Shown: piece after piece, positions 1 through 43,450 of the stretch
Numbering within the stretch: position 1 is the first letter of the stretch
Layout: each line of letters opens with the position of its first letter
DNA from: a virus
UHGV virus genome: UHGV-1381044
Reading direction: 5' to 3' (one strand)
DNA length: 44,017 bases
Notes under the pieces: model-generated
Told to the model about the DNA's origin: nothing
The model's input: the letters and a program-made list of their open reading frames with translations, nothing else
Database searches by the model: none
Position numbers and translations under genes: made by a program

Positions 1-57
1 CCACATCTTGCCGACCTGTGAGCTGTCACACATCTTGCCGACCTGTGAGCTGTCCAA
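1..57. repeat. Two further units of the same 27-bp repeat at the window start.
   Basis: Positions 4-57 repeat cacatcttgccgacctgtgagctgtc. Confidence 0.95.
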
Positions 58-456
58 CATCACGCGTACATCATTAAGCAACTTTTTCACTTCGCAGCGT
101 TTAAGCCGGTAAAAACCAGTTTTCAGCTCTTCCAGCTTTTTGTCAACAAGTACATGCTTTCTCCACCAGTCGCATACTGATTCGCGGAACTCTTTCTCAT
201 GCGTTTCTTTGTCAAACCAATCAGGAATTATATCTTGATCAACGACAAACACCCATTTCTCCGGTTTTTCTTCCGGATCAATCCACCACTCATCATCTTT
301 TTTCGGTACCAGTTCAGCCCGAACAAAGGTTTTTGATGCGCCTATGTAATCGTCCTTAATTCCGAGGATTTTCAGCAAATCGGAATGGCTTTCATTATCT
401 TCTGGCGCAATTACGATTTTGTTTTTCAAGATAATTCCGCTCTTAAATCTACACAT
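1..456 (-). CDS. 5' part (152 codons) of a repeat-protein gene. It starts at ATG 454-456 and runs off the window start in-frame into the 27-bp repeat array. If the contig is circular it is continuous with 43451-44017.
   Basis: ATG at 456 is preceded by GGAGG (RC of 461-465) with a 6-nt spacer. No stop occurs in frame down to position 1. The last codons decode ...NDVRVMLDSSQVGKMCDSSQVGKMW. It is absent from the ORF track only because it is open-ended. Confidence 0.6.
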   Translation of the reverse strand, partial: MCRFKSGIILKNKIVIAPEDNESHSDLLKILGIKDDYIGASKTFVRAELVPKKDDEWWIDPEEKPEKWVFVVDQDIIPDWFDKETHEKEFRESVCDWWRKHVLVDKKLEELKTGFYRLKRCEVKKLLNDVRVMLDSSQVGKMCDSSQVGKMW

Positions 457-468
457 TGTTTTCCTCCG

Positions 469-705
469 TTAAATCACATTGTTTTTTTCGCCGTCCTCTA
501 TCCCTGCGGCCTTTAATATGGCCCACAGTTCCCGCAGTCTCATAGATCCTGGATCTTGTTTCCGCAGACGGTAAGTCGACAGTTTCATCCCCGCCATTTT
601 AGCCATGCGCTGATCGTCGTAGCGCTTGCGGGATTTGATTACGTCAAGGAGTATCTGGAGGTTTTCCCCTTTCTCCTCGGCGTATGTCTTTTTTTTAAGC
701 GCCAT
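469..705 (-). CDS. Small DNA-binding (HTH-like) protein of 79 aa. The ORF track extends it to 765.
   Basis: ATG at 703-705 is preceded by a G-rich RBS (gggggtagtATG). Basic/HTH-like sequence MAGMKLSTYRLRK...LRELWAILKAAG. It lies immediately upstream of the repeat-protein gene on the same strand. Confidence 0.5.
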   Translation of the reverse strand: MALKKKTYAEEKGENLQILLDVIKSRKRYDDQRMAKMAGMKLSTYRLRKQDPGSMRLRELWAILKAAGIEDGEKNNVI

Positions 706-847
706 ACTACCCCCGATCTTGTAAATGCTCTTGTGTTCAAAGCCAGTGTAAAAACCCATAAGCATCCAATCTAACGCGTAGCACTGCTACCGTGTTGCGC
801 CTACTTACGGGCCGGAGAGGCTCCTGCCAGCTCCGGGCATACAGCTA

Positions 848-996: not shown

Positions 997-1512
997 ATGT
1001 ACTTAGTAATATTTATTGCTGGAATTGCAATCATTAAATTTGTATTGAATTTTTCTAGGCTCATTGAAACACTTATAATTTTCCGTATTTTTCAAAAACA
1101 GCCTAAAAACGTAGCGCAATATTGCCCATTTGCGACTGCTTTATTTAACGCAGCAGGAACCCAGCAAGTCATCATTTCTACCATACGCACTAATGGACTT
1201 TCCCAAGCCAGGCAAGATTACATTTCAAATTCCCTAGATAAAAAAGATTCTTATTTTGCGCTTGAAACTATTTTTCAAAAAACCATTGGTGTTTATAAAT
1301 TTCGTATATCGCAAAGCGTAAATCCTTTTTACTGGTTATTTCTACCAAAATACCTGCTCATGAGCTATTCAATAGAATTTCCATCTTTTATTGAAGCATT
1401 GCTCAATCTTGTCTATTGGTTTCTTGGCGTTGTCCTTTCATATTTTCTAGGAAAATATTTAGATCTTCATTATCAGGATCTTGTTTCGTACATACGCAGT
1501 ATGCTGATATGA
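997..1512 (+). CDS. AT-rich multi-pass membrane protein of 171 aa. It is a moron, possibly a superinfection-exclusion or abortive-infection type protein.
   Basis: ORF with an RBS and several hydrophobic segments. GC is much lower than the flanks. It lies in the lysogeny block on the strand opposite the neighbouring genes. Confidence 0.6.
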   Translation: MYLVIFIAGIAIIKFVLNFSRLIETLIIFRIFQKQPKNVAQYCPFATALFNAAGTQQVIISTIRTNGLSQARQDYISNSLDKKDSYFALETIFQKTIGVYKFRISQSVNPFYWLFLPKYLLMSYSIEFPSFIEALLNLVYWFLGVVLSYFLGKYLDLHYQDLVSYIRSMLI

Positions 1513-1867: not shown

Positions 1868-2292
1868 TTTATCACCTCCATCATTGTTGTGTTTCGTTCG
1901 GTTTTGTGTTACCATTGTTATGCCTAAACGGCAAAGGAAGGAGTGGTTATCATTGACCAAACTTTTGAATTTGCCTGTTCCCTTTGCTTCTAACCCGCCC
2001 ACACTGAAACCTCGACAGTCAAAACAGGTCAAAGGCGGCTCTGGTTGTTTTGTCAGCGATTAGGCATGTTGCAGAACCAAGACTGCTAAAGTGACAAGGT
2101 GCTTCAAGAAGCATTTGGTCTCGTCAGATGCGGCGTTAGCCTGCAAGGTACATAGGGTAAACAAATTTGGTAAAGAACTGTTAGGGACGAGACCCCTAGC
2201 AGTTTCTTTTTGCATCAAATCCGATAAGAGACTGATGAAACCGACACTTTCATCAGTTTTCTTTTTGCCCGGAATGGTGCTCTGGACAACTT

Positions 2293-2520
2293 TTATTTCC
2301 CATCACGAACAGAATCAGAAACAGGATTTTCCTCGTCCTCTAAAAGAGCTTCGATGCCGACTCCGAAGTAAGTTGCGATCTTCTTGATTTTGTCAGCTTT
2401 CGGCGTATATCTGCCAGCTTTCCAATTGCTCAGCGTTGCGGTAGATACTCCGGTTCTTTTTGCTACTTCATAGTCAGTAACACCAGCTTTATCCCTCAAT
2501 TCCGCATATTTGTTATACAT
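2293..2520 (-). CDS. XRE-family HTH regulator, Cro-like, 75 aa. The ORF track extends it to 2553.
   Basis: ATG at 2518-2520 follows RBS gaaaggatgg. It carries the HTH TGVSTATLSNWKAGRYTP and is divergent from the cI-like gene. Confidence 0.7.
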   Translation of the reverse strand: MYNKYAELRDKAGVTDYEVAKRTGVSTATLSNWKAGRYTPKADKIKKIATYFGVGIEALLEDEENPVSDSVRDGK

Positions 2521-2546
2521 TTTCACCATCCTTTCATAAATATATA

Positions 2547-2575
2547 TTGACAATAGTTAAGATTTCTAATATAAT
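2547..2575 (+). promoter_or_regulatory. Consensus sigma70-type promoter TTGACA-17-TATAAT directed at the cI-like gene.
   Basis: TTGACA at 2547-2552 and TATAAT at 2570-2575. Confidence 0.6.
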
Positions 2576-2627
2576 GAAGTCGTCGAACAAAGTTATAAAA
2601 GAAATCGAAGCTATTATCTTTGTCTGT

Positions 2628-2645
2628 AGCTTTGCTTTCAAAGCT
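2628..2645. promoter_or_regulatory. Perfect palindrome AGCTTTG-CTTT-CAAAGCT between the two predicted start sites. The TTTCAAAG half-site recurs at 2667-2674 and 2699-2706. Candidate operator.
   Basis: Read directly from the sequence. Confidence 0.5.
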
Positions 2646-2653
2646 ATGCTCAG

Positions 2654-2682
2654 AGTATAGCATTGATTTCAAAGTTTGTCAA
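2654..2682 (-). promoter_or_regulatory. Minus-strand promoter TTGACA-17-TATACT directed at the cro-like gene. It sits face-to-face with the 2547 promoter.
   Basis: RC of 2677-2682 is TTGACA and RC of 2654-2659 is TATACT, with a 17-nt spacer. Confidence 0.5.
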
Positions 2683-2726
2683 CAGATTTTAGCTAATTTT
2701 TCAAATTTATTTTAGAGGTGTAAACT

Positions 2727-3110
2727 ATGTATAGTAACTTTGAAAAGTTATGCTCCGAAAGAAACGTAACCCCTTACCGTGTATGCAAAGAAACGGGCAT
2801 TCCAACTGCTACGATAAGCAATTGGAAAGCCGGACGATACACACCTAAACAGGATAAGTTAAAAAGGATTGCTGATTTTTTCGGCGTGTCTGTTGACTTC
2901 TTAATAACAGGAAAGGAGGAAACTGCCGTTGCACAGGAAGAACACATTGATTTAAAAGCGGAATTTAACCGCATCAAGAAACTGTTGGAAAGCGGGGAAA
3001 ACGCACCGTTGTATTTTGACGGTCAGCCCGCAGATCAGGAGAGCATCAACTTGCTGCTCGATCAGATCAAGATATCCTTTGCGCTTATGGAACGTATGCG
3101 CAAAAAATAG
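2727..3110 (+). CDS. XRE-family HTH repressor (CI/ImmR-like), 127 aa.
   Basis: The N-terminal HTH (TGIPTATISNWKAGRYTP) is paralogous to the cro-like protein. It is followed directly by an ImmA-type protease. Confidence 0.8.
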   Translation: MYSNFEKLCSERNVTPYRVCKETGIPTATISNWKAGRYTPKQDKLKRIADFFGVSVDFLITGKEETAVAQEEHIDLKAEFNRIKKLLESGENAPLYFDGQPADQESINLLLDQIKISFALMERMRKK

Positions 3111-3122
3111 GAGAGGTAGAAC

Positions 3123-3548
3123 ATGACAGATGCAAAAAGGACAGCCGTTGAGCTATCGAAGAAATACCACACAAATGAACCGTTCGAATTAGCCGAACAG
3201 TTGGGGGTATATACACAGGTTGGACCTTTGGGGAAGATATTCGGATGCTGCTTAACCATAGCGGGGCAACGCTTCATTTACATAAACAGTGATCTGGATA
3301 CACCTACACAAAAGATGGTTGCGGCCCACGAACTGGGCCACGCCGTAATGCATCAGGAAGATTACTTCTTTTTTAACTGGATGCCGGACAGCTTGCACCG
3401 GAACCGTGCAGAGATCGAAGCTAACACTTTTGCTGTTGAGCTGCTTGTACCGGACAGTGTTGTGCTGGATCATCCAGGTTTTACTTTAGCGCAGCTATCC
3501 GCATTAACCGGATACGCTGAGGAGTTCTTGAAATTCAAAAGGTTTTAA
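3123..3548 (+). CDS. immA: ImmA/IrrE-family zinc metallopeptidase, the anti-repressor protease partner of an ImmR-type repressor.
   Basis: HEXXH motif AHELGHAVMH. The size and its position just downstream of the repressor match ImmR/ImmA modules. Confidence 0.8.
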   Translation: MTDAKRTAVELSKKYHTNEPFELAEQLGVYTQVGPLGKIFGCCLTIAGQRFIYINSDLDTPTQKMVAAHELGHAVMHQEDYFFFNWMPDSLHRNRAEIEANTFAVELLVPDSVVLDHPGFTLAQLSALTGYAEEFLKFKRF

Positions 3549-3725
3549 GGGGGATGTTTGGGATTGCACTACTTTTACGTGGGCCGTTATGGTAAAGGTA
3601 TCCTTTTTATATTTACTGCTGGGTTTTTCGGCATTGGATGGGTTTCAGACATATCAAAAATTTTGAAAGGGCGATTTGTCGATCAGTACGGTGCCCCGTT
3701 GATTGAGTGGTGATCTTATTTAGAA

Positions 3726-4391
3726 ATGATTGAGAAAGATGAAAAGCGAATTTTAGAACGCAAAGAGATTGAAAAGAATAGAGAAATTCAAGAAGAGAAC
3801 AAAAGAAAATTAAATTATTCTTTTACCATAAAAGATATGGAACAATTTAGCGAAATACCCTTTGAATGGTGCTGGGTAGATACCTTATCATACTCCAACG
3901 GCATTGCTTGGTTTATGTTAAACAAGAATAATCAATATATTGCCTTATCTGTTTTGGATTTTATTAACCAGATTTTAGTCAAATCTAAAGCTTATACAGG
4001 ATTCACAAAAAAATTGTATATTTGCACAGAAAACATAAATTTTGATTTTCCGGTTCCAATGCACAAGGATAGTCTTCCTTGGACATATGTGCAGTGTGTA
4101 CCTTATACTCCAAAAATGAAACTATCAAAGCATCCGGCAGTTTTACATTTTTGCGAATACGCTACCAAAAAAGAATACTGTGGTTTTGAATCATATGTCT
4201 ATTGTTCTCTTGGAGAGATATTTTTTATGCAGGATGGGAATATAGGGAAAGCCAATTTAGACATACCGCCTTATAAAATCCAAATCAGGCTTCATGGATT
4301 AAATTTAATTGTTAAGAGAATTGACAAATTTACCTCAATGGGGAATATTAATATCTACAAATTTAATCCTAAGGAATATAATGCTTTTTGA
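3726..4391 (+). CDS. AT-rich hypothetical protein of 221 aa. A moron, with no recognisable domain.
   Basis: Long ORF with much lower GC than the flanks, located between the immunity genes and int. Confidence 0.55.
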   Translation: MIEKDEKRILERKEIEKNREIQEENKRKLNYSFTIKDMEQFSEIPFEWCWVDTLSYSNGIAWFMLNKNNQYIALSVLDFINQILVKSKAYTGFTKKLYICTENINFDFPVPMHKDSLPWTYVQCVPYTPKMKLSKHPAVLHFCEYATKKEYCGFESYVYCSLGEIFFMQDGNIGKANLDIPPYKIQIRLHGLNLIVKRIDKFTSMGNINIYKFNPKEYNAF

Positions 4392-4563
4392 TTTTATTTA
4401 ATTCTTCAGATTGTTGAGCTAGATGAGCGCCAAATTCAAAAGCTTCTCTTACAGCAGCTTTCATCTGCCGCAGAGGAGAGGGGGCATTCTCAGGAGTGAC
4501 GATGCTTTCCAGACGCTCAACACGATTTACTAAGTTATTCCATCGTTTTTTTGATATAAACAT
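4369..4563 (-). CDS. Small hypothetical protein of 64 aa. It is convergent with the 3726 gene and overlaps its 3' end by 23 nt.
   Basis: RBS aaaggatgg lies upstream of ATG 4563. The sequence looks coiled-coil-like. Confidence 0.4.
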   Translation of the reverse strand: MFISKKRWNNLVNRVERLESIVTPENAPSPLRQMKAAVREAFEFGAHLAQQSEELNKIKKHYIP

Positions 4564-4782: not shown

Positions 4783-6024
4783 ATGGCAAAAGCAAAAAAA
4801 TTACCTTCCGGATCATGGCGCGTACTGGTGTTTGACCACTACGAGCCTGTCTTAAATCCAGACGGAACACCCGTCATGCAAAACGGAAAACCGAAGCAAA
4901 AAAGAATCTACCAGTCCTTTACAGATGATGACCCATCAATTAAAGGGCGCAAACGGGTCGAATTGGCAGCTGCACAATACATGGCAGAGAAAGATTCACG
5001 TGAAGCGGAAAGGCGCAACCAAGAGGCGAATATGACGCTTAGAGGGGCGGCAAAAAAATATATAGATCTGTGCAGAACACTGAAAAGGTCTCCATCCACT
5101 ATAGAAGACTATGAGTGCATCATGCGGAACGGGTTCCAGGATCTTTTTAACATGCGCCTGTGTGACATATCAGAAGAGCTTCTGCAAAATGCCATAGCCA
5201 AAGAAGCGCAGCGGCCTGTCAACGGGAAGCCAGGCAAGACCCTTACAGCAAAGCGGCTGAAAAATGAGTGGGGGTTTATATCCTCTGTGCTCCACAAGTA
5301 CACAGACATCCGCACAGACAACTTGCAGCTACCTACACCAACACAAAGAATGGTTGACCTTCCAGATGCAAAAACGGTTATGGATATAGTCCGCGGCACC
5401 GAAATGGAGCTGCCGGTACTGCTTGCAATGTGGCTGTCGTTCACAGCCTCAGAAATCCGCGGCCTTACAAAGTCCAAATCCATTAACGGCGATTACATAA
5501 CGATAAAAGAGACGGTCGTAACCGTAAATGGAAAAGCTGTAAGAAAAGAAACAGCGAAAAACAACACGCGAAAACGCAAACACAAAATACCGGCTTATAT
5601 AAAAGGTCTGATTGACAAGGTTCCCGGAGATGTACTGGTGCCGATGACTGACGTTGCACTGCACCACCGCTGGAAACGCTTGCAAAAAATCCACGGTATA
5701 AAGGACCCTATCACTTTTCACGATCTGCGGCACCTCAATGCCTCTGTTATGGCCCTGCTGCAAATACCAGACAAATACGCCCAGGAGCGCGGCGGCTGGA
5801 AGTCGGATGCCGTTATGAAAAAAGTCTACATGCAGACATTTTCAGCTGAGCGGCAAAAGGTTGATGATAAAATTGACAGCTACTTTGAGAGTATCGTAGG
5901 AACCGAAAAAAGCGAAAAAGAATCCATAAAAGAAGTTGTGAACCGGCTAAAAAAGGAAGATCCGGAGGGATGGAAAAAAGCTGTTTTGGAAGCTATGCAA
6001 CACGAAATGCAACACGCGCAATAA
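4783..6024 (+). CDS. int: Tyrosine site-specific integrase (phage integrase family), 413 aa. The ORF track begins it at GTG 4666.
   Basis: RBS aaaggag lies 9 nt before ATG 4783. The C-terminal catalytic region HDLRHL...GGW...KKVYMQ (R-H-R-Y type) is present, and an attP-like region lies immediately downstream. Confidence 0.9.
   Translation: MAKAKKLPSGSWRVLVFDHYEPVLNPDGTPVMQNGKPKQKRIYQSFTDDDPSIKGRKRVELAAAQYMAEKDSREAERRNQEANMTLRGAAKKYIDLCRTLKRSPSTIEDYECIMRNGFQDLFNMRLCDISEELLQNAIAKEAQRPVNGKPGKTLTAKRLKNEWGFISSVLHKYTDIRTDNLQLPTPTQRMVDLPDAKTVMDIVRGTEMELPVLLAMWLSFTASEIRGLTKSKSINGDYITIKETVVTVNGKAVRKETAKNNTRKRKHKIPAYIKGLIDKVPGDVLVPMTDVALHHRWKRLQKIHGIKDPITFHDLRHLNASVMALLQIPDKYAQERGGWKSDAVMKKVYMQTFSAERQKVDDKIDSYFESIVGTEKSEKESIKEVVNRLKKEDPEGWKKAVLEAMQHEMQHAQ
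5993..6020. repeat. 28-bp direct repeat, copy 1: CTATGCAACACGAAATGCAACACGCGCA. It contains ATGCAACACG twice. Candidate Int arm-type sites.
   Basis: Read directly from the sequence. An identical copy lies at 6198-6225. Confidence 0.8.
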
Positions 6025-6051: not shown

Positions 6052-6079
6052 AGAGCAGACAACGGGAATCGAACCCGTC
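6052..6079 (-). other. 3'-terminal fragment of a tRNA gene, comprising the T-arm and the acceptor 3' strand with no 5' half. Probable attP core.
   Basis: The RC reads GACGGG-TTCGATT-CCCGT-TGTCTGC-T, a canonical T-stem/loop plus a 7-nt acceptor strand and discriminator. No D-arm or anticodon arm lies upstream. Confidence 0.6.
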
Positions 6080-15764: not shown

Positions 15765-16277
15765 TTACTTACCTAAAATTTCAAAATGAGGGATAACGGT
15801 ATACGGACCACCTACACTGGTTATCTTGTAAACATTGTCGCGGTTGCTGTTCATGTACTGGTAAAAACCATTGCGGTAGTCACCCTCAGTAACCATGCCG
15901 CCAGTCCATTCACCCTGCCAGAAAAAATCCTCTGGCCCGAAGGTGATGCTGTCCGGAAGTTCATCATTGACCTGCGCCGCCCATGCTTTCGGAGTCATCC
16001 ACGGCATCGCTGCACCGTCTGACCGCTGCACCATCACCTTGTCTCCGTCTGGGGCGTAAGCAATATGCAGCGCGGCATTGTCGGTACTGTCTGGGCCATA
16101 CTTTTTCAGTATTGCGCCGTGGTCGGTTATCAGGTCAACTCCGGATAAAACATGAGGATACCAGTACGCATCTCCTGTTGTGGCTGATTCGTAATAATTG
16201 AAAAGTGTTATAATTTTGCTATAGATATATCTCACCTCGCATTTACGGGAGTTGAAACTGCGTCCACATCGCTCCAA
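15765..16277 (-). CDS. Minor capsid / head-tail adaptor protein. The start is uncertain because the ORF overlaps the HNH gene by 46 nt.
   Basis: ORF containing the motif ITFGPEDFFWQGEW. Confidence 0.45.
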   Translation of the reverse strand: MERCGRSFNSRKCEVRYIYSKIITLFNYYESATTGDAYWYPHVLSGVDLITDHGAILKKYGPDSTDNAALHIAYAPDGDKVMVQRSDGAAMPWMTPKAWAAQVNDELPDSITFGPEDFFWQGEWTGGMVTEGDYRNGFYQYMNSNRDNVYKITSVGGPYTVIPHFEILGK

Positions 16278-16858
16278 CCACGATATCTTCTCTTGGTTAT
16301 AGTGTTATAGGAAATCCCGGTTATTTCACTCCATTCTGTTAATGTATGTGTTTCCCCATTTACAGTAACGTAAACATTGCCTCTTTTATTGTTGGCTTGC
16401 TGTTTCAAAGTTGCCCATCTACAATTTTCAGGACAATAATTTCCATCCACGTTTACTCTATCTATAGTAAGATTTTCAGCATATCCATTTCTTAATGCCC
16501 ATTCCTTAAAATCAAGGAATGACTTTTCCCATTCTTCGCAAACAGAAATGCCCCTGCCACCATAGTTTTTATAAGATGGCTCTCCAATATAGGAACAGCG
16601 TCTACGCATATCTACCCATATAGTGTATAAGCGTGTGTTTCTATCTCCATGAATTTTCTTAGCTTCCGACACTCTATCTTTTTGATAACAGCCGCAACTA
16701 AGTGTATTTTTGCGAATCAAATTATTTGAAGCTACAATTACTTCGTTTCCACAATCACATTTACAAAGCCACTGAGATTGCCCCGTTTTATTAACTTTAT
16801 CAATGGCTATAAGTCTTCCGAATCTTTGATTTGTTAAATTTCTTGTTGGTCTTGGCAT
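16232..16858 (-). CDS. Free-standing HNH homing endonuclease (AT-rich) inserted between head genes.
   Basis: It has the Cys cluster LCKCDCGNE...SCGC, the HNH/AP2-like region NLTIDRVNVDGNYCPENCRWATLKQQANN, and low GC. It is paralogous to the N-terminus of the 31412 gene. Confidence 0.75.
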   Translation of the reverse strand: MPRPTRNLTNQRFGRLIAIDKVNKTGQSQWLCKCDCGNEVIVASNNLIRKNTLSCGCYQKDRVSEAKKIHGDRNTRLYTIWVDMRRRCSYIGEPSYKNYGGRGISVCEEWEKSFLDFKEWALRNGYAENLTIDRVNVDGNYCPENCRWATLKQQANNKRGNVYVTVNGETHTLTEWSEITGISYNTITKRRYRGWSDVDAVSTPVNAR

Positions 16859-19143: not shown

Positions 19144-19779
19144 TCACTCAAACAGTGACATGTTGCTTGCAATTGCAGCCTGTCGTTCGCTTGCATCTTT
19201 GATGTCCATGATTTCTTTTTTGGTCATCTTTCCACCCGGATGATTATTGCGGGTTATCCCCGTTGTAAATCTCGCCTGGTTCTGCATAGCGGTCTGCTGA
19301 TCTTCATCAACAAATGCAGACGCATCGTCTTTTTTCATCTGATCCAGCAGATCATTAAGCCCCAGTATCTTTCCATCCTTAAGCTTAAGACCGGCGTCTT
19401 TGATGTCTGTCATAACAGCCTTTTTAGCAGCCTCGGAAGAGAATTTAACATCTTCCAGTGCAGATTTAAGAGCATCAGCAAAATCTCTTTCATAAATTTT
19501 ATTGTTAAAATTTTTCTCTGCATCTGCTGCTTTTTGCTTCCATGTGTCGACCTCTGCCTTGACGTTCTCTGGATCAATGCCATCAAAGCTTTTGAGTGTA
19601 GCTTCTGCTGTCTCTGCCCGTTCCTTCCAACTGTCACGCTCACTTTCGACCTTTGACAGTGTTTTAGAAACTTCTCCGGCATTCTTGTAATGCTCAGACA
19701 ATGCTTTTTTTACATCTGCCTTCTTATCTTCCGGGATGTCAATACCAAATGATTTGAGTGTTTCAATAAGTTTCTGCAT
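19144..19779 (-). CDS. Scaffolding protein (Phage_GP20-like).
   Basis: Acidic, coiled-coil, 211 aa. RBS AGGAGGATGATATG. It lies upstream of the capsid gene. Confidence 0.6.
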   Translation of the reverse strand: MQKLIETLKSFGIDIPEDKKADVKKALSEHYKNAGEVSKTLSKVESERDSWKERAETAEATLKSFDGIDPENVKAEVDTWKQKAADAEKNFNNKIYERDFADALKSALEDVKFSSEAAKKAVMTDIKDAGLKLKDGKILGLNDLLDQMKKDDASAFVDEDQQTAMQNQARFTTGITRNNHPGGKMTKKEIMDIKDASERQAAIASNMSLFE

Positions 19780-19855: not shown

Positions 19856-19929
19856 TGGACCGCCAGGGACTTGAACCCCGGACCATCCGGTTATGAGCCG
19901 GACGCTCTGGCCAACTGAGCTAGCGGTCC
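19856..19929 (-). tRNA. tRNA-Met(CAU): tRNA with anticodon CAU (Met elongator, or Ile2 if lysidinylated). 74 nt, CCA not encoded.
   Basis: The RC folds as GGACCGC-TA-GCTC-AGTTGGCCA-GAGC-G-TCCGG-CTCATAA-CCGGA-TGGTC-CGGGG-TTCAAGT-CCCTG-GCGGTCC-A. G1-C72 is paired, so it is not an initiator. Confidence 0.85.
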
Positions 19930-25469: not shown

Positions 25470-26702
25470 TCACTTCCTTAACTTAGAATATTTTACTTTT
25501 AAATAGCACTCGCTTTCCAATATAGTTGTCCCTTTGTAGGTAGTGAGAGCACGGTAAGCGGCGATGTCGGCTTCTGAGAGTGGGGTCTCAATTGGATCAG
25601 ATAGAATATAAGCAACATCGGCAGGAACATTATCGTTCGTTAAATTCTCATAGTATAGAACAAGTGCATTATACGCACCACTTGCACGAATACCTTCTTT
25701 TCCATTGGCTGCATCTCTGGAATACGTTGCAATATTGCACAAACATTCTGTATACTCCCTAGACAAATTTTTAATATCAACTGCCATATGTCTATATCCA
25801 CCATGCGTACTAGATGAAGCTGTTTTGTAGAAAACAACATTTGCATGCTTAATCCGTCGACGATACACTCCCCGTTCAAAATCAAGTTCATCGCAGATCC
25901 ATTGTTGACCGTTGGAATCCGTATAATTACCATTTGCAGAAACTGGAATACCAGGAAGACCATTGGGTGTTGAGAAAAGCACAGATTGCATCTGCTCATT
26001 ATCAGGATTTTTTACAATGACACTGAGATTTCCATCATCACCTGCACTCTGAATCTCCTGCGGGTAATCAGGTGATGGGGACGGCTTACCGCCGGTGTAC
26101 GGCTCCCACGGGAGGGCAGTGTCTCCGGCGTTAAGCATGACTTTAATCCCATCAACATTTAATACTTCTCCCTTATTAGCTGAAAAAGCAATCCTTTTTG
26201 CGATGCTATTATTTACAGTGCTTGCTGAACCACTTGCCATAATTCCTGAATATTTTTCTGTTGCCAAAGTTACTCTTTTATCTGCCCCATAAACCGACAA
26301 AATATACACGCCATCTAAACTAACTGGCGTTACTCGCTCTATGAGTATCCATCCGGTTTCCGTGCAGGTGCCGTGAAGTGATATCAAACCTTCTTTTACT
26401 GTGACCGTAACTCCTCGGGATATTCCTGTATAATCCGGAATATCCAACAACTGCGCCCCTGTCGTCGTCACCTGCGTGGATTTACCATACAGCACCAGCC
26501 CATTAAATGGTTCTCCTATGCAGTCTTTAAGTGTCAATGGCGGTTCTCCTTGCATCTCCGTATCTTCAATCCCACTCTTCCTAGCCCACGCAGCAAGGTA
26601 CATTTCTTCTCTTGTTAAAGGGACTTCTGGAACATTGACGCGCATCCCTGATATATGTGCAAGATACTGTTCTACTCGTGTTATAGGTTTTGATATAGCC
26701 AT
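25470..26702 (-). CDS. Hypothetical structural protein of 410 aa, with an N-terminus beginning MAISKPITRVEQYL.
   Basis: ORF. Confidence 0.5.
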   Translation of the reverse strand: MAISKPITRVEQYLAHISGMRVNVPEVPLTREEMYLAAWARKSGIEDTEMQGEPPLTLKDCIGEPFNGLVLYGKSTQVTTTGAQLLDIPDYTGISRGVTVTVKEGLISLHGTCTETGWILIERVTPVSLDGVYILSVYGADKRVTLATEKYSGIMASGSASTVNNSIAKRIAFSANKGEVLNVDGIKVMLNAGDTALPWEPYTGGKPSPSPDYPQEIQSAGDDGNLSVIVKNPDNEQMQSVLFSTPNGLPGIPVSANGNYTDSNGQQWICDELDFERGVYRRRIKHANVVFYKTASSSTHGGYRHMAVDIKNLSREYTECLCNIATYSRDAANGKEGIRASGAYNALVLYYENLTNDNVPADVAYILSDPIETPLSEADIAAYRALTTYKGTTILESECYLKVKYSKLRK

Positions 26703-26712
26703 GCTGCTTCCT

Positions 26713-27534
26713 CTACTCTACATACCATATTTCCATGCTTCCATTGTCCCGGCTGTGCCAACAAGCACCCTCCAGTACTCCCCCGTCAGTCTCATCCAGA
26801 TAGTACCAGTCCCCGGTGTTGCCCTCTGGGTCTACGTTGTGTCCGTCCCATCTGTGCCACCCGGTCAGCATATAGCCGTCTGCGCCAAACAGGTACCAGT
26901 GATGGTTGATAAGTTCCCAGCGGTTTTTTAAGGCTTTGCCGCCGGAGAAATACATATACTTGCCGTCAGATTTGCGCCAACCGTTTAAAATCGTTCCAAT
27001 TCCCGCGTTTTTGCCGTTTGCCAGATTTACCGCCACATGGTGCCCTTCCAGCAGCAGCACATCCCCCGGTAGCAAATATGAGTCCCCGTTGAGATACTCT
27101 TTATCCGTATATGCGTTAAATCCGGCTTTTACCAGTGCCGCCCGAAGGTTGCCAGTATAACAGTAGACGCTCACTCCTTGGAGCTTTTTGTCCTGCATCA
27201 GATATCCCACAGCCTTTACGATAGCGGCAACGCCGGAGCTACAGTCCGCTTCGCAGTCAATCGCAATCTTCGCCGGATCGTAGCCGGATGCTTTCAGCTG
27301 CTGCCAGAATGTATAACGATCTCCCTGGTCATATCCAACATGGTCGTTCTTTGCCGCTCTTTCCGCAAGATCAGCAATCTTTTTCCCTACCGTAGCGTTT
27401 GGGTGCCGGAGCATAACGCCCCAGGGGCGACTATACCACGGGATAACAGCCCACTCATCACCTTTCTGATCTCCTGCCTTGCCGCCGGAATACTTGCCGC
27501 GCTCATCATGCCCACAGTTACTTATCATCTCCAT
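26713..27534 (-). CDS. NlpC/P60-type peptidoglycan endopeptidase with C-terminal choline-binding-type cell-wall repeats.
   Basis: It has the catalytic Cys motif DCSSGV and the His motif PGDVLLLEGHHVAV. The C-terminal repeats include WYLFGADGYMLTGWH and GDWYYLDETDGG. Confidence 0.65.
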   Translation of the reverse strand: MEMISNCGHDERGKYSGGKAGDQKGDEWAVIPWYSRPWGVMLRHPNATVGKKIADLAERAAKNDHVGYDQGDRYTFWQQLKASGYDPAKIAIDCEADCSSGVAAIVKAVGYLMQDKKLQGVSVYCYTGNLRAALVKAGFNAYTDKEYLNGDSYLLPGDVLLLEGHHVAVNLANGKNAGIGTILNGWRKSDGKYMYFSGGKALKNRWELINHHWYLFGADGYMLTGWHRWDGHNVDPEGNTGDWYYLDETDGGVLEGACWHSRDNGSMEIWYVE

Positions 27535-27539
27535 ACCTC

Positions 27540-28967
27540 CTATTCTTCGTCAAACAGCTTTCTTTCGTCTGGCTGCGCTTCCTCAACCATAGCCTTCGCA
27601 TCATCTTTCGTCATGCCCTCAAACTTAACAAAGTAGTACCACGCCGGGACCTTGCCTTGCGTAACATACTGCCACCAGCGGCTCCGGTCTGCTTCCCGGT
27701 CATACAGGATGTCACCAAAGTCATATGTAACCTCATAAGACCCTACAGGTGACAGGTTGTAAAGGTCTGCGTATACGTTAAGTGCGTATATGGTGGCATC
27801 AAGGCACGCTTCCAACTGATCGCGTACATCCTTGATAAACTGTACGGTGCGCTGTTGGTCAGCTTCCACGCCTGTAGCCGTCTGGATGCCGGAAGACTCA
27901 TTAAATACAAAGTACCCATTTGCAAATCCGGCCTTGTATCCTATCTGGCTTAACAGGTTATTGATACCCTTGATTCTGGCATCGGTGTTAAGCTGTGGGT
28001 TAATCTCCTGGTAGAATTCCTTTGCATCGTTGCCAAACACATTCTTAACGTAATGTGGAAGCCCAACCGCATCCGCCGGGCCACGGTGTTTTATCTTCTG
28101 CCCGCTCTCATACATCAGTCTATCATCAGCCAGTATGATCTTCTGGCTGTCAAATATCTCTCCCGCATTCCGGCTGTATGCTATATCAAGATCTTTCAGT
28201 TCCTCTACGGCTTCGCGGAATATCGGAAGCCCCAATGGGGATGATATATCTACGTTGTTTGCCTGCGGCGTGCGGAAGATACCGAACATTGGCTTGTCCA
28301 GTGGCTCCCCGGATGCCTTAAGAATCGGCGGCGTGTCCTCCAACATATCAGCCCATTTCGTCTTCGTCAGCGGCACCGGATCACCAAGGCTCTCAGCAGA
28401 TTTAGAAACGTATGCCCGGTTACTCACATAGTAGGGGTAGAGCGTCACGCCATCCTGTACCGTCTCCATAAACCGGTGATACTCCAGACGGGTGTACCAT
28501 TTCTTCCCGGACTGGTAGCTGTCCTTGAAGATGATGCCGCGCACATCCAAGTTGTCATAGTCAACAAGCAGCACGTCCGCCGGGGTGAATACATCCAGGC
28601 TTGTGCCGTTTGGCTTCAAAAACACGGTTCCGTATGCGCATCCGTACTCCACCCAGTCGCGGAGCTTCGCGTAGACAAGGTCTATCTGCTGCTGCAACCA
28701 CGTTGCACGGGTGCTGCCCTCCAGATGTATTCCGATACCCAGTGTTGTCAGACGGGCAGTTTCAGAGCAAAGCGCTTTTGCAAAGTTGATGGTCTTAATG
28801 CCCTCATCATCGTCCAACCACTCCGGCTGACCGTGGTATATCTTCGCACACTGGTCTATAGCTTTTTCCATCTCTGGAGATACGATGGATTCCACATCAA
28901 AGTCGTTCTCTGCCTGCCGTTTAAAAATCATGCTAAACCACCTTTTTATCGTTGATAAGATTCCCAT
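27540..28967 (-). CDS. Portal protein.
   Basis: 475 aa, directly downstream of the terminase gene with an ATGA overlap. Confidence 0.7.
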   Translation of the reverse strand: MGILSTIKRWFSMIFKRQAENDFDVESIVSPEMEKAIDQCAKIYHGQPEWLDDDEGIKTINFAKALCSETARLTTLGIGIHLEGSTRATWLQQQIDLVYAKLRDWVEYGCAYGTVFLKPNGTSLDVFTPADVLLVDYDNLDVRGIIFKDSYQSGKKWYTRLEYHRFMETVQDGVTLYPYYVSNRAYVSKSAESLGDPVPLTKTKWADMLEDTPPILKASGEPLDKPMFGIFRTPQANNVDISSPLGLPIFREAVEELKDLDIAYSRNAGEIFDSQKIILADDRLMYESGQKIKHRGPADAVGLPHYVKNVFGNDAKEFYQEINPQLNTDARIKGINNLLSQIGYKAGFANGYFVFNESSGIQTATGVEADQQRTVQFIKDVRDQLEACLDATIYALNVYADLYNLSPVGSYEVTYDFGDILYDREADRSRWWQYVTQGKVPAWYYFVKFEGMTKDDAKAMVEEAQPDERKLFDEE

Positions 28968-30601
28968 TATGCACTATTCCCCCGTCTCTCCCACAGCGAT
29001 TCCGTAGCGTAACGGGCCGCATCAATGAGATGGTTATTTTTGTCTGGATATCCGCTTATGACATTGCCGTCCTTATCCCGCTCGTACTCATACTCTTTAA
29101 ATTCTTTACAAGCGTTAGGCGTTCTGTTCGGATCCATGACAAATTTTTTCCCTTGTAACCACTTCATTGAGTACTCAATGCTGCCAGGTCCTTTATGTGC
29201 TGCTCTGGCTGGTAGCCCTGAATCTCTGTAATCCTCAACAGATTTTGGCTCTGCACTATCGCATGTTATAACATAGTCGTCATATTTGCGCCGTTTGATT
29301 TCGGCGGCTGTCCAGCTGTTCTTTTTCTTGTTTTCACAAATCTCGTCTATAAAGTATATGGTTTCACGCGCCGAATCGTAATATATCCTTACAAAAGCAT
29401 ATTTGTCTGGGTACCATCCCCAGTCAACGCCTTGATATATGCGATCCATAATTTTAATTTCTTCATCTGTGATAGTGCGCTCTTCGATAAATTCAAAGAC
29501 ATTGCCACCGTTTCCGTTTGCTTCTCCCATATACTCATTTTCGTATGCACTCGGATTAACCTCTTTTAGATGTTCTGCATCGTTAAGGAACTCCTCCCCC
29601 AGCCAGTCAGCAGGGACATCTTTATATGTACTTCGCATAACAACGGCACTTGCGTTTTTAAACTCTGCCTCTACAGTATATTTATTGGCCCAGTTGATCT
29701 TGCTTCTCGGTGGGTTAAATGACTTAAACTTATATGCTTTGTCGCCGCCACGTATAGCGGACTGCTGAATACTTCTTACTTCTTCCGGTCCGGCAAACTG
29801 GTCCAACTCTTCAAACCATACGATACCGATATATCCAAACTTCGGTTTAATCGATTTGATCTTAATCGGGTCATCTGCACCTCGAAAATAGATTTTTTGC
29901 CCAGTTGGCTTGTATGTGATCTCAAAAGGAGATTGCTTGAATTTAAACTCTGCATCAAGACCAAGCTTTGAGATAGCCCATTGCAACTGAGCATACACAG
30001 AGTCTTTTATAGTGTTACCGACTTTTCGCAGCACAAGCGCATGCATATCAGGATGCTTTTTTATCAGCTCCGGGATAATGCATGATATACAAGACGATTT
30101 CGAAGATCCTCGCCCGCCTGGGAGTACATACTCCGTATGCATACCGCGCCGGATGTCGCGAATCATCGGGTGGAATACATCCGCCACCACATCAAGATCA
30201 ATATGGTATTCTTTTGCCGTTCTGGCTTCCTCTTCTGCCTTCTGCTGTGCTTCTTTTTCCTCTTTTACGGCTATAGCTTTCTCCAAATCGGACATGGCCT
30301 TTAGCTGTTCGGAAAAAGCCGGAGCGAAGCCAAAAGAATCCTTTACTTCCCCCCGTGCGATCATGGCGCGGCGCTTCTGGATATCAGCAAGGGACATGGT
30401 GTCAGTACCGTTGAGTTTATCCACTTCGGCTTGCTTTTCGGCTATATAGGATGCAATTTTACTATTTTTTAGTAGCTTTCCTGCGTTTGTTCCTGCGTTT
30501 CTCTCCGAATAACCCGCTTTTCTCGCCGCCTCAGAAGCGTTCCCGCCATTCGCTATGTAGTTGTCTGCAAACGCTTTCTGCTTCGGCGTAAGCTCACCCA
30601 T
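28967..30601 (-). CDS. Terminase large subunit (PBSX-type) with an N-terminal TerS-like (Terminase_2) DNA-binding domain fused in-frame.
   Basis: The N-terminus LTPKQKAFADNYIANGGNASEAARKAGYSE is a TerS-type HTH. The Walker A motif LPGGRGSSKSS lies about 150 aa in. It is a single 544-aa ORF. Confidence 0.8.
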   Translation of the reverse strand: MGELTPKQKAFADNYIANGGNASEAARKAGYSERNAGTNAGKLLKNSKIASYIAEKQAEVDKLNGTDTMSLADIQKRRAMIARGEVKDSFGFAPAFSEQLKAMSDLEKAIAVKEEKEAQQKAEEEARTAKEYHIDLDVVADVFHPMIRDIRRGMHTEYVLPGGRGSSKSSCISCIIPELIKKHPDMHALVLRKVGNTIKDSVYAQLQWAISKLGLDAEFKFKQSPFEITYKPTGQKIYFRGADDPIKIKSIKPKFGYIGIVWFEELDQFAGPEEVRSIQQSAIRGGDKAYKFKSFNPPRSKINWANKYTVEAEFKNASAVVMRSTYKDVPADWLGEEFLNDAEHLKEVNPSAYENEYMGEANGNGGNVFEFIEERTITDEEIKIMDRIYQGVDWGWYPDKYAFVRIYYDSARETIYFIDEICENKKKNSWTAAEIKRRKYDDYVITCDSAEPKSVEDYRDSGLPARAAHKGPGSIEYSMKWLQGKKFVMDPNRTPNACKEFKEYEYERDKDGNVISGYPDKNNHLIDAARYATESLWERRGNSA

Positions 30602-31411: not shown

Positions 31412-32155
31412 TCAATCTTTCGGAGGAAATTTTTTGTATTTTTTTCCAATATTTTTCAATTCGTCTTCCCAGCCTTCATGACTGTTTATGTACTCTCCAT
31501 AGATTTTTGACTCAGCTTCTTTTCTGGCAGCGGCGGCGTCATCTAAGTTACTATACGTGCCTAGCTGATATTGTTTCCGCCTGAAATTTATATAAGCTCT
31601 GTATTTGCCGTTTTTCTGGAGTGATACTCCATTTACTTTCGTACTAGAGTTTTTATTAACTGTCCCTTTCATCCTTGATTTAACGCTTATCAAAGAGGAT
31701 CCATCCGTAATAAAAACTGATTGCATATCCGCTAAGAACTCACCGGTATTACGATGGCAATTTATACATGTATGAATATACGGCAATCTAGACAAACAAG
31801 TTTCGCTTTCCTTGCCGCACGCAGGGCATATTACTTTGCAAAAAGTCCGATTTTTGCCACGACATACCTTTTTTTCAACGCTCAATACTTTGAAGCCATT
31901 AATAGTTGTTCCAACTTTCTCCTGTGCTTTTTTCCATTTTAGATCGTACGCCTTCTGCCTATAGTTTTTTCCAAAATTCTCTCTGCTTTTGCATCCGCAA
32001 GATGTCGATATCCCTCTTGCTAAAACATTTTTTGGGACATCTCTTATAGTGCCACAGACGCATTTGCATTTAACGTATCCTGGTTTGGAATCCAGTGAAA
32101 TTACTTCCCATCTTCCAAATTTATCTCCTAATTGAATATTGTATTTACTGCTCAT
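31412..32155 (-). CDS. HNH/AP2-domain homing-endonuclease-like protein of 247 aa.
   Basis: It has two Cys-rich zinc-ribbon repeats (CKCVCG...SCGCKS and CKVICPACG...CINCH). The C-terminal AP2 domain is YRAYINFRRKQYQLGTYSNLDDAAAARKEAESKIYG. GC is low. Confidence 0.7.
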   Translation of the reverse strand: MSSKYNIQLGDKFGRWEVISLDSKPGYVKCKCVCGTIRDVPKNVLARGISTSCGCKSRENFGKNYRQKAYDLKWKKAQEKVGTTINGFKVLSVEKKVCRGKNRTFCKVICPACGKESETCLSRLPYIHTCINCHRNTGEFLADMQSVFITDGSSLISVKSRMKGTVNKNSSTKVNGVSLQKNGKYRAYINFRRKQYQLGTYSNLDDAAAARKEAESKIYGEYINSHEGWEDELKNIGKKYKKFPPKD

Positions 32156-35981: not shown

Positions 35982-37019
35982 TTAAATCTGTACCATTTCT
36001 CGGACATTTCTTAACGTCTTCGGTGTAGACTGCGCATAATACATGCTTGTTACTGCCGGGCTTGCATGTCCAAGGATTTCCTGAATGATACCAATATCAA
36101 CCTTTCTGTTCTTCAAATTCATGCCAAGTGTTTTTCTCATTTTATGAGGATATACAGCGCTTTTCACCGCTGCCCGCGCTCCGATGTCCTTAATGATTTT
36201 TCGGAATCCGCTCACACTCATTTTCCCGTGAGGCGCTTTCGACTGCGGGAACATATACGGGCTGTTGTCTGTTCTGCTCTCCAAATATTCGTTGTAGTAA
36301 TGCCGCGCATCATCGTCCAGATATAACGTGCGGTATCTGCCGCCCTTTTCTCCTTTAATGAGGATATCTCCCGTTTCTGTGTTGATCTGGTCAATCCTGA
36401 TCTCTGCGATTTCTCCGACCCGCGCCCCGGTGCTGCGGAATACTTCAATGATTGCACGCTCTCTTTTAGTGCGGCATGCATCCCGCATCTGGATAATCTC
36501 CGACCGGCTAAAGTAATCAATAGGCTTTAGCGCAATCTTTTTCGCTTCTGTTGCTTCCACCGGATTTTCATCAATAAGTTTTGATTTTCGCATCCATGTG
36601 TAAAAAGCCGAAAGGAATCTGCGTTCGTTATTATATGTGCTGTCCTGCACCTTTTCGCTTTTTGTACCTGGGCGTTTCTCGTACTGTGCTATATACCATT
36701 CCACGTCAAATGTATCTACACTGTCCAACGACTTTCCTACCATATTAGATAACCTTTTTACAGATCGTATATACCCGTTGATTGTCGCAGGACTGAGCCC
36801 GCGCTTCTTGATCTTGAAAAGCTCCAGTAAATAGCGGTTTCTCTTTTCTATGTCGTTCTTCCACTCTGCTGGAAGGGATGTGATTTCCTGCACATTTACC
36901 TTTGTAAGCTCACTCGATACTACACTATCCAGGATAGCAAGTGTGTCCGAATCAGAAATGTAAATCGACATTGCAACAATAATGTTATCAACAATTCCTC
37001 TTTTGATATTCTGGCCCAT
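35982..37019 (-). CDS. Second tyrosine recombinase (XerC/D / phage-integrase family), 345 aa. The ORF track extends it to 37115.
   Basis: RBS GGGAGGA precedes ATG 37019. Catalytic residues are present in ...RVGEIAEIRIDQI...HKMRKT...GHASPAVTSMYYAQ. Confidence 0.8.
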   Translation of the reverse strand: MGQNIKRGIVDNIIVAMSIYISDSDTLAILDSVVSSELTKVNVQEITSLPAEWKNDIEKRNRYLLELFKIKKRGLSPATINGYIRSVKRLSNMVGKSLDSVDTFDVEWYIAQYEKRPGTKSEKVQDSTYNNERRFLSAFYTWMRKSKLIDENPVEATEAKKIALKPIDYFSRSEIIQMRDACRTKRERAIIEVFRSTGARVGEIAEIRIDQINTETGDILIKGEKGGRYRTLYLDDDARHYYNEYLESRTDNSPYMFPQSKAPHGKMSVSGFRKIIKDIGARAAVKSAVYPHKMRKTLGMNLKNRKVDIGIIQEILGHASPAVTSMYYAQSTPKTLRNVREMVQI

Positions 37020-37145
37020 AGTAATCCTCCCTCTTGCAGAATCTGCAAAGGTCTGATACAATGGACCTAAGCAGATCAGGTAAGTGGCGGTAACATCTTG
37101 GCGGGTGTCCACCACTTATTTTTTTGTGTCATTGTCTAACTCCCT

Positions 37146-41004: not shown

Positions 41005-41548
41005 AGAGCTGCTTCATTCGCTCCAGCTCCTCTGGTGTGGCGGTCTCGATTCCAAGCGTCTTGCACTCGCTGATCAGACCGTCCAGCAGGTGCGACATTT
41101 CCGCGCTGTCATAGCAGCTGGAACCTTTGAGAAGGATGTATGTACGGTAATTAATTCCGTTTTTCCCTTCCCTCACTTCCGATGTTGGCTTGATATGGAA
41201 CATTTCCCTTTCCAGCTCTCTATTTTCAGCTTCTTCCGTATCCGGTATGACTGCATATGTTGGTGATCCGTCCGATAAATCAATCTGTCCATACTCCCGG
41301 AGCATAATGTTATGCGCTCTCGGTTTTGATATCTTGATGGACTCGGCCAGCTTTGAAAGAAGCACCCAGTAATAAGCATTGCTGTCAAGACTGCGTTTGT
41401 CTCTCCACTGCTTTGCAGTCAGCCGGAGTGTTTTATCTCGCATACCGTCAATCTGGCCGGATATATCATCCTCCGCCTCAAAGGTCACCCGGAATTTTCC
41501 AGTTGTCCAGTCCCTGGTAACATCAGTTAATGTGCATTTACACTCCAT
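40967..41548 (-). CDS. Hypothetical protein of 193 aa. The ORF track extends it to 41665.
   Basis: RBS GAGGT precedes ATG 41548. It lies downstream of ERF. Confidence 0.45.
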   Translation of the reverse strand: MECKCTLTDVTRDWTTGKFRVTFEAEDDISGQIDGMRDKTLRLTAKQWRDKRSLDSNAYYWVLLSKLAESIKISKPRAHNIMLREYGQIDLSDGSPTYAVIPDTEEAENRELEREMFHIKPTSEVREGKNGINYRTYILLKGSSCYDSAEMSHLLDGLISECKTLGIETATPEELERMKQLYEQNRGKHEKTV

Positions 41549-41555
41549 AGCTACC

Positions 41556-42206
41556 TCAATTCTGTTGGATATCATCCGGCTTATCCGGTGCTTTCGGCGC
41601 AGGCTTGTCCGGCTTCTTATTGAGGATTTCCATTGCTTTCTTCCAATCCTCAAGGTTGAGATCATGCACGTCAGTCACATTGTATGTCTGTAAAATCCCT
41701 TTGATACCGACCCCAGTCCGCTGAAGTTCGGCAAACAGTGCATTGACGTATCCCGCTTCAAGCACTGGCTTACTCGGAGGCGGTGTCTCTGCGTCTGGGT
41801 CTTTCATTTCTTCTGTCGGGATGCAAAAAACCTGGAAGCAAGCATATTTAAATGCGATTGACATAGCCTTGTTTGTTGCTTTATCCCCGCTGTCCATTCC
41901 TTCACCGATCACCGTTGCAGATACGGAAGATCCATCTTCTGCATAAAAAGTATATTTCACAGTACAAATGGAGTAGATCAGGTTTCCACCCTTTGCTGTA
42001 TGACGCTCTTCACGTTTCTGTTCCATAATCTCCGGTACAACAAATAATTTGTGTTTAATCAGTGCCGGATTGATCGCGTTCATGACTGCATCGATGCCGC
42101 GGTACATGAATCGCTGCTGCTCATTTCGACTATCCTTGCCAACCGCTCCGATCTCAGCCATTACGGCTGTAATCGTCTCATAAATGTTTTTCTTCTTCTC
42201 ATCCAT
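41556..42206 (-). CDS. ERF-family single-strand annealing recombinase.
   Basis: The N-terminal region ETITAVMAEIGAVGKDSRNEQQRFMYRGIDAVMNAINPALIKHKLFVVPE and ...FKYACFQVFCIPTEE match the ERF superfamily. Confidence 0.65.
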   Translation of the reverse strand: MDEKKKNIYETITAVMAEIGAVGKDSRNEQQRFMYRGIDAVMNAINPALIKHKLFVVPEIMEQKREERHTAKGGNLIYSICTVKYTFYAEDGSSVSATVIGEGMDSGDKATNKAMSIAFKYACFQVFCIPTEEMKDPDAETPPPSKPVLEAGYVNALFAELQRTGVGIKGILQTYNVTDVHDLNLEDWKKAMEILNKKPDKPAPKAPDKPDDIQQN

Positions 42207-42234
42207 GCTCTCACCTACTTAATCCTACTTAATC

Positions 42235-42726
42235 CTACTTAATCTGGAGATTCTGCCTTGCGATCAGCCGTGCCCCTTCGATTTCTGTACCACTTTTTAA
42301 AAGTTTCTTAAGTGCTGTCTTATCCACTACCGGATCAGCAATCTTGATACAGGATTGCGGCAAGGCGTTGACATCACCAACAAATTCAACAGCTTCTGAC
42401 TTTCTCCATGATGCTGATACGCGCTCTGTCTGGAACTTCTGCCCATTCAGCACCCCACTGACATACTTTTTAAGGCTTTCGGCTTTCGCTTCCGCTCTTG
42501 CTTGTCGATCTGCAAAGGTCATTTTTTCTTTTTTCAGTGCCTCTGCATCCGACTGCAAATTTTTAATCCATAAAAGGATATTTTCTATTTTCTCATTAAG
42601 ATCGCACTGTAAGCTATCAATGGCCGCATACGCTTCTGTATCAACAATCTCTCCTGTCTCTGGATCTAAGGCATTTTCAAACGCATTCATAATTTCCGCG
42701 TTGATCTGGTATAAATTCACGTTCAC
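42235..42726 (-). CDS. Siphovirus Gp157-family protein.
   Basis: 163 aa, coiled-coil. It has the typical partner position next to an ERF/Sak recombinase. Confidence 0.55.
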   Translation of the reverse strand: MNVNLYQINAEIMNAFENALDPETGEIVDTEAYAAIDSLQCDLNEKIENILLWIKNLQSDAEALKKEKMTFADRQARAEAKAESLKKYVSGVLNGQKFQTERVSASWRKSEAVEFVGDVNALPQSCIKIADPVVDKTALKKLLKSGTEIEGARLIARQNLQIK

Positions 42727-42806
42727 ATTCCTCCATTACGTTCTGCCTGTTTTTTCTTTGTTTTGCCCTATCTCTGCATTTACAGCACTCGTCTGCTTCG
42801 CAGCTA

Positions 42807-43149: not shown

Positions 43150-43161
43150 GCTTTCCTCCTT

Positions 43162-43389: not shown

Positions 43390-43450
43390 TTTTCTTTACC
43401 CCCTTATAGGCCACAGCAAGTTAGATACAAACCTCTTTTGGTTCTTCATT

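Follow-up and report, generated by a model that had tools for sequence, protein, structure and literature searches.

The virus genome UHGV-1381044, a stretch of 44,017 nucleotides that is referred to here in its entirety as the window, begins and ends within the same 27-bp tandem repeat, which raises the question of whether its two ends are the halves of one gene on a circular molecule and what such a gene would encode. We consider it very probable (about 85 %) that the window is the complete circular genome of a temperate siphovirus-type phage from gut Lachnospiraceae/Clostridia and that it carries, across the junction of its ends, a gene for a protein composed of an N-terminal domain (N-domain) and a β-solenoid. 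Circularity itself is ordinary; of greater interest is the gene family concealed by the junction.

Tandem Repeats Finder located the 27-bp repeat at 2-61 (2.2 copies) and at 43550-44015 (17.3 copies, 94 % matches, no indels), in agreement with an initial annotation of the window, which had noted it at both ends. On the minus strand, the ATG at 456 opens a stop-free frame that runs down to position 1 with the terminal residues ...QVGKMW, and the frame entering at 44017 starts with GSSQVGEMW and closes at the TAA at 43451-43453. Joined, the two translations concatenate in frame to a single minus-strand gene (456→1 followed by 44017→43451) of 340 amino acids plus stop, the 341 codons that the initial annotation had proposed. 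The product consists of a non-repeat N-domain of 132 amino acids (codons 1-132, positions 61-456 with the ATG at 454-456), where about 130 had been expected, 19 full nonapeptide units of the pattern M-[W/C/L]-[D/G]-S-S-Q-V-G-[K/E/V], which bears out the earlier count of at least 19, a degenerate 20th unit (MCDSSTARD) and a tail of roughly 30 amino acids. Where the window begins, on one side of the artificial junction, positions 1-60 hold the 5' end of the array with, counting from zero, units 0 and 1 and the codons ATG TGG of unit 2; the remainder of unit 2 lies at 43538-44017, together with units 3-18 and the degenerate unit 19, at the same period of 27 bp or nine residues. The C-terminal tail (FKNYPVIKIMIPDGGKFEMVVHKSKDEE), read from the translation and kept in homologues, occupies 43451-43537 together with the stop codon.

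A construct of the joined ends aligns without a break across the junction to two related contigs of 44.8 kb (L001) and 41.9 kb (L002), and the gene order across the junction is colinear with that of independent, uninterrupted relatives: in L001, L002, L009 and L028, the repeat gene is uninterrupted and has identical neighbours on both sides. Furthermore, a look-up of the window's portal protein and of a 75-aa protein encoded next to the repeat gene led to the public source contig (JGI 3300045988 Ga0495776_020765; ENA ERZ1303525 NODE_259_length_44072_cov_9.146466, assembled with SPAdes). At 44,072 bp, it comprises the window (compared over 26540-29967 and 41162-44017) plus 55 additional 3' bases identical to window positions 1-55, and thus has the same sequence at both ends in the form of a 55-nt direct terminal repeat (DTR). 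A source contig of exactly this length (44,017 + 55 = 44,072 bp) had been predicted beforehand from the geometry of a 208-bp repeat described below. The window is a circular contig from which a DTR of k = 55 was trimmed off.

The gene content and the attachment site complete this picture. A tyrosine integrase of 413 aa, recognised by library scans and integrase comparison, is encoded at 4783-6024 on the plus strand. Among the contigs whose integrase is 100 % identical, a 116-kb contig carries an integrated prophage (L028/L009), which matches the window with 99.87 % identity from the array to about window position 6077 and then continues into host DNA at a tRNA-Gly(CCC). Its repeat gene, which lies about 4 kb away from the integrase gene, is a single 268-aa open reading frame (ORF), and its N-domain and tail are identical to those encoded in the window. 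The point at which prophage identity ends marks the 25-nt core of the phage attachment site attP (6053-6077), which equals the 3' end of the host tRNA-Gly(CCC) (L028 7271-7342). The window crosses attP without interruption, from the integrase gene over the core to the tail-end genes, as do the contigs L029-L031. A single contig that starts and stops in the same gene and at the same time runs through attP requires DNA that is circular, concatemeric or circularly permuted. In addition to the intact attP, a full set of phage modules is present: genes for lysogeny and the switch (integrase, ImmA-like protease, cI- and cro-like helix-turn-helix proteins with divergent consensus promoters), for recombination (Gp157/Gam-like, Erf, NinB-like, RusA) and for packaging and the virion (terminase, portal, scaffold, major head, tape measure and tail proteins). 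The initial reading of the window as a complete circular phage genome thus holds, on the overlap in the source contig, the uninterrupted relatives, the phage modules and the crossing of attP. Among 50,697 phage records, megablast searches with both window halves yielded only short matches of 74-83 % identity, to unannotated human-faecal phage contigs and to Butyrivibrio virus Ceridwen.

The joined protein was modelled with AlphaFold2 (AF2), which gave a predicted local distance difference test score (pLDDT) of up to 97 over residues 1-100 of the N-domain and a confident, regular solenoid for the repeat array. The array of M-x-[D/G]-S-S-Q-V-G-x units is accordingly modelled as a predicted β-solenoid; the regular solenoid of short strands, together with significant structural matches, places it with the parallel β-helix fold, an assignment of structural class only. 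In the N-domain, conserved polar residues (C2, K5, S6, H24, D35, R46, E48 and the D-Q-D at 73-75) along with the likewise conserved W80 suggest a functional site. Several known repeat families have features in common with the array and differ from it in others. The RTX nonapeptide β-roll (GGXGXDXUX) has the same period, but the window protein contains no Gly/Asp Ca2+-binding motif and does not fit the consensus. Pentapeptide repeats (PF00805) have a period of five, A(D/N)LXX, whereas the period here is nine and PF00805 finds no match. The ArdA profile (PF07275) does not match the window protein either. With ArdA and pentapeptide-repeat proteins it shares an elongated repetitive rod, mild acidity and the placement of its gene in an early or leading region of a mobile element, and fusions to ArdA and to pentapeptide repeats occur in one relative each; it differs from them in lacking any sequence match, in its period of nine instead of five and in an isoelectric point (pI) of about 5.1, far less acidic than that of true DNA mimics. 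The YdcK β-solenoid (PF18836) follows the same N-domain in 4 of 149 distant relatives, but neither the window protein nor its close relatives match PF18836. Library matches of the joined protein to CART, suprabasin, SclB and DndA are spurious, low-complexity hits, and one close homologue (P0052) bears the label PF27509 in a precomputed table.

The fold also raises the possibility that the protein does not act early inside the cell but is an adhesin-like β-helix that is secreted, displayed on the surface or built into the virion, comparable to autotransporter passengers and tailspikes. The top structural matches are indeed TibA, Ag43 and phage tailspikes or depolymerases. Targets of diversity-generating retroelements (DGRs) that carry DUF6273, a C-type-lectin-like DGR target domain also present in relatives of the window protein, are usually receptor-binding proteins (PMC10743442; PMC11792537), which counts on the same side. 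However, the N-terminus of the window protein is not signal-like and its gene lies in the early operon. Compared with the TibA and Ag43 passengers, the Ca2+-dependent antifreeze protein MpAFP and RTX proteins, it has no secretion signal, no translocator and no Pfam repeat family. We regard an adhesin as very improbable and infer that the protein, whose gene is part of the early phage operon, is cytoplasmic, unlike the autotransporter passengers.

The position of the window ends can be traced to the assembly. The sole long exact repeat near the junction, R, has 208 bp and occurs at 43649-43856 and again at 43865-44017 continued at 1-55, the two copies being shifted by 216 bp or eight units. An 8-nt spacer at 43857-43864 completes, with the first copy, a higher-order repeat of 216 bp. 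Of the second copy, 153 nt lie at the right end of the window, and the remaining 55 nt are window positions 1-55, which are the trimmed terminal overlap. The last 55 nt of the second copy thus begin exactly at window base 1. A de Bruijn assembler at k = 55 yields this outcome for a cycle with a short tandem loop: the path runs along the long edge, starting with the last k bases of R, through R, the 8-nt spacer and R again, and back to the first k-mer. The contig begins where the graph exits the 208-bp duplication inside the 27-bp array, and for this reason a real gene was split across the window ends. The exact repeat phase at the ends, which independent breaks would produce in 1 of 27 cases, likewise follows from the trimming of the 55-nt overlap. 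The supposition of an arbitrary linearisation was therefore mistaken, as the cut falls at a distance of precisely k = 55 nt from the end of an exact duplication. Like other circular metagenomic phage genomes with a trimmed DTR, the window comes from a contig with a 55-nt direct terminal repeat and is complete as the genome of a temperate siphovirus-type phage, integrase and attP included; it differs from them in that the overlap lies inside a tandem array, so that the start point and the copy number were set by the assembly graph.

This geometry gives weight to the objection that the overlap arose only because both ends lie in a tandem repeat, and that the join, the copy number or the circle is an assembly artefact. 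The 55-nt overlap lies entirely within the array, and its 55-mer recurs there at 43802-43856, so the overlap taken alone is weak evidence for a circle and speaks to that extent against our conclusion. Moreover, the graph cannot set the number of passes through the 216-bp loop, and many assemblies break in the repeat gene or hold N-gaps there (L008, L010, L016, L017, L025-27 and L029-31). The topology, however, is independent of the loop: a unique path of 43.6 kb leaves on the N-domain side and returns on the tail side, and on its way it crosses attP, which would be impossible for a purely integrated prophage. The four independent contigs with an uninterrupted gene and identical flanks point the same way. 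In addition, a MEGAHIT contig (L030), from a second sample and another assembler, spans the same inter-block junction, and the arrangement of two blocks is thus not specific to one assembly. The doubt is confined to the copy number, and we consider an artefact of topology highly unlikely. The caution in the initial annotation that an assembler-collapsed repeat could produce the same picture was justified for the number of 216-bp loop passes and not for the circle. The 19 units are a lower bound, since the assembly gives the minimum of two loop passes; the general form is 19 + 8n units in a gene of 340 + 72n codons. The window illustrates what happens when a direct terminal repeat lies inside a tandem array: the circle is trustworthy, while the start point and the repeat count are assembler-made. 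Genes that are split across trimmed contig ends, such as this one, drop out of protein catalogues.

Variation in the array itself provides a view of how the repeat evolves. In a profile of the units from 47 homologues, which have 8-19 units each with the window's 19 at the top of the range, M1 (0.94), S5 (1.00) and V7 (0.99) are nearly invariant; S4 (0.86), Q6 (0.85) and G8 (0.90) are frequent; and positions 2 (W/R/L/C/Y), 3 (D 0.46, G 0.44) and 9 (E/K/V) are variable. Phages with identical N-domain, tail and integrase have uninterrupted genes with 3, 11 or 19 units (196, 268 and 340 aa), and the steps between these alleles are exactly one block of eight units (216 bp). The 3-unit allele is not a simple graph collapse, because its hybrid unit MWGSSQVGK is absent from the longer alleles, and the duplication in the window is recent, because a private change, S→R in units 4 and 12, is common to both block copies. 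Every unit of a given array uses the same codons at the conserved positions, and between lineages these codons differ synonymously (S5 TCA/TCC, V7 GTC/GTA, G8 GGC/GGA, S4 AGC/AGT). Minor codons within the arrays of four lineages comprise 46 non-synonymous changes and 1 synonymous change, clustered at unit positions 2, 3, 4 and 9, against a synonymous expectation of 25 % (P ~2×10⁻⁵ in a crude binomial test). Lag autocorrelation of the variable positions did not reveal a solenoid super-period of two or three units. We read these patterns as concerted evolution of the array under protein-level constraint, in which the array evolves by unequal recombination or slippage and its units are homogenised within each array. 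That the 27-bp array instead acts at the DNA level, as iterons of an origin like that in lambda O, a packaging site or protein-binding sites, with an incidental ORF, has in its favour that the units are nearly identical in DNA and lie in the early/replication region, that a period of 27 preserves the frame at any copy number and that a replication initiator was not clearly found among the window genes, but it is most improbable in view of the 9-residue protein pattern retained by distant relatives with diverged units, the merely synonymous differences of conserved codons between lineages, the missing initiator homology by which the gene differs from a lambda O-type initiator with iterons, the confident AF2 solenoid, an otherwise identical phage with just three units and the attachment of the same N-domain to non-repetitive C-terminal domains.

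A search with the joined protein returned at least 1118 close homologues, the lengths of which step by 9 aa and range from 214 to 328 aa among the 120 listed. Many are encoded on contigs of 40-45 kb, and some in genomes of Clostridia (Lacrimispora, Hungatella, Clostridium porci and Lachnospiraceae A4). An exhaustive search with a profile of the N-domain found 1315 cluster representatives, 359 of them at E ≤ 1e-10, with the domain nearly always at the N-terminus. These about 1300 clusters, defined at 50 % identity, derive mostly from Clostridia phages, prophages and elements resembling integrative and conjugative elements (ICEs). To judge from these sequences, the junction gene is a member of a very large, unannotated family of human-gut Clostridia mobile elements. 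The C-terminal parts of the relatives are diverse and include degenerate forms of the window's own nonapeptide, an "A-type" nonapeptide (…[D/G]-[S/N]-[A/S]-T-V-x-A-…) and 8-residue repeats; the A-type relative P0257 comes from a short contig. By Pfam, the YdcK-type solenoid was assigned to the four mentioned among the 149, pentapeptide repeats to 1, DUF6273 to 3 and ArdA to 1 (P0142, residues 408-593, E 2e-14); by the motif G[VI]RP-x, five relatives have DUF6273-type C-termini. One homologue (P0059) is encoded by an ICE-like element along with a serine recombinase, SSB, ParA, ParB-N and a thioester-domain adhesin.

A connection to DGRs is provided by relative P0170 (locus L035), which shares the N-domain of the window protein. 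At the 3' end of its gene, a variable repeat (VR, 2682-2766) pairs with a template repeat (TR, 3215-3299), and 8 of 9 mismatches fall on TR adenines. The cassette (2012-4441) comprises the target gene with the VR, a 126-aa accessory gene, the TR and a reverse transcriptase (3407-4441). By this arrangement, P0170 qualifies as a bona fide DGR target. The window protein resembles DGR targets with DUF6273 in joining a constant part to a hypervariable C-terminal part, and relatives with the same N-domain are such targets; the difference is that the window gene varies by tandem-repeat recombination and by amino-acid variants at 3-4 positions per unit. In the window, none of the approximately 40 ORFs scanned, a set that leaves some small ORFs aside, matched a reverse transcriptase. 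The long direct repeats seen (tandem repeats window-wide, exact repeats near the junction) are those of the array, no window-wide search for a dispersed VR/TR pair having been made.

The junction gene lies in the early lytic operon, in which the switch region is followed by a 98-aa gene, the junction gene, the 75-aa gene and the genes for the Gp157/Gam-like protein, Erf, the NinB-like protein and RusA. A ribosome-binding site, GGAGGA, can be read at 462-467, 5 nt 5' of the ATG on the minus strand. The 98-aa ORF (469-765, minus strand), which has no family match, lies in the same operon and ends 12 nt 5' of the ATG; relatives have a 96-aa counterpart directly upstream. On the other side, the 75-aa gene (43162-43389, minus strand) is directly 3' of the repeat gene in relatives too, and is followed by the Gp157/Gam-like and Erf genes.

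Based on this arrangement, we propose as our best guess that the junction protein is an early-expressed, intracellular and hypervariable binder of host or defence targets. We infer an early intracellular binder because a constant N-terminal module and a variable C-terminal module sit together where mobile elements place their first-expressed genes. According to this hypothetical scenario, the N-domain would be a constant effector or anchoring module, and the solenoid would be the variable surface with which the protein binds a host or defence target at an early stage of infection. The points that we count towards this function are the relatives with other solenoids, DUF6273 or ArdA, the DGR target and the ICE-like homologue near SSB, ParA and ParB. 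Signs of an arms race may be seen in the differing copy numbers (3, 11 and 19 units) among phages that are 99.9 % identical, in the nearly always amino-acid-changing variation within arrays and in the relatives that are DGR targets or fused to ArdA. Several results stand against the proposed function: the joined protein has no family match in Pfam, PHROG, NCBIfam or PADLOC scans; the ArdA fusion is known from one low-coverage contig; a σ70-consensus promoter was looked for and not found immediately 5' of the pair formed by the 98-aa gene and the junction gene; and the joined protein, mildly acidic with a pI of about 5.1 and a net charge of about -10, is too weakly charged for a classical DNA mimic, a role that we reject. 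An anti-defence role, possibly anti-restriction, is the leading guess, although we hold it to be less likely than not. It is a tentative and, in our judgement, rather unlikely generalisation that the N-domain family as a whole represents an undescribed class of intracellular, early, hypervariable mobile-element proteins, diversified by one of two unrelated routes, DGR mutagenesis of a lectin-like domain or rapid recombination of a nonapeptide solenoid with positive selection, that would act as anti-defence 'adaptive binders' and track variable host defence or takeover targets. In the literature, we found nothing specific on the N-domain/solenoid family as anti-defence, leading-region or solenoid proteins. 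Should the variable solenoid turn out to bind defence or host proteins, the family would provide a natural scaffold with programmable specificity and a new way into the study of phage-host conflict in Lachnospiraceae.

Some further features of the early region deserve mention. The intergenic stretch at 766-996, between the 98-aa gene and a 171-aa ORF on the opposite strand, contains at 847-942 the repeats (ATTTAC) × 7.5 and a 23-bp unit × 2.2; no consensus σ70 promoter was found in it, and the repeats could be operator- or promoter-like elements. The 171-aa ORF (997-1512, plus strand) lies on the opposite strand within the early leftward operon, has no match in any library, is conserved in the near-identical prophage (L028 2215-2730) and may be classed as a candidate moron. 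At the boundary of the Gp157/Gam-like and Erf genes, the 10-bp unit CCTACTTAAT is perfectly repeated 3.1 times in tandem (42214-42244). A second tyrosine-recombinase-like gene (35982-37115, minus strand, 377 aa), with a PHROG integrase match at E 1e-44, is situated in the middle of the early/replication region, distant from the attP-linked integrase.

In the packaging and virion region, a 544-aa ORF (28967-30601, minus strand) combines the small-terminase domain Terminase_2 (residues 4-121) with Terminase_3 and Terminase_3C, the ATPase and nuclease of the large terminase, and the fused ORF is also called in relatives (541 aa in L001). Two HNH endonuclease genes (16232-16858 and 31412-32155, both minus strand) are present, one upstream of the terminase gene and one between the head and tail genes. 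A tRNA-Met (CAT) is encoded at 19856-19929 on the minus strand, just upstream of the head scaffold gene (19144-19779). The portal gene is directly followed by that of a 273-aa protein (26713-27534, minus strand), which has a choline-binding or endolysin-like cell-wall-binding C-terminus, with an ELLD domain according to the precomputed Pfam label of the same gene in L007, in an unusual place for a wall-binding module.
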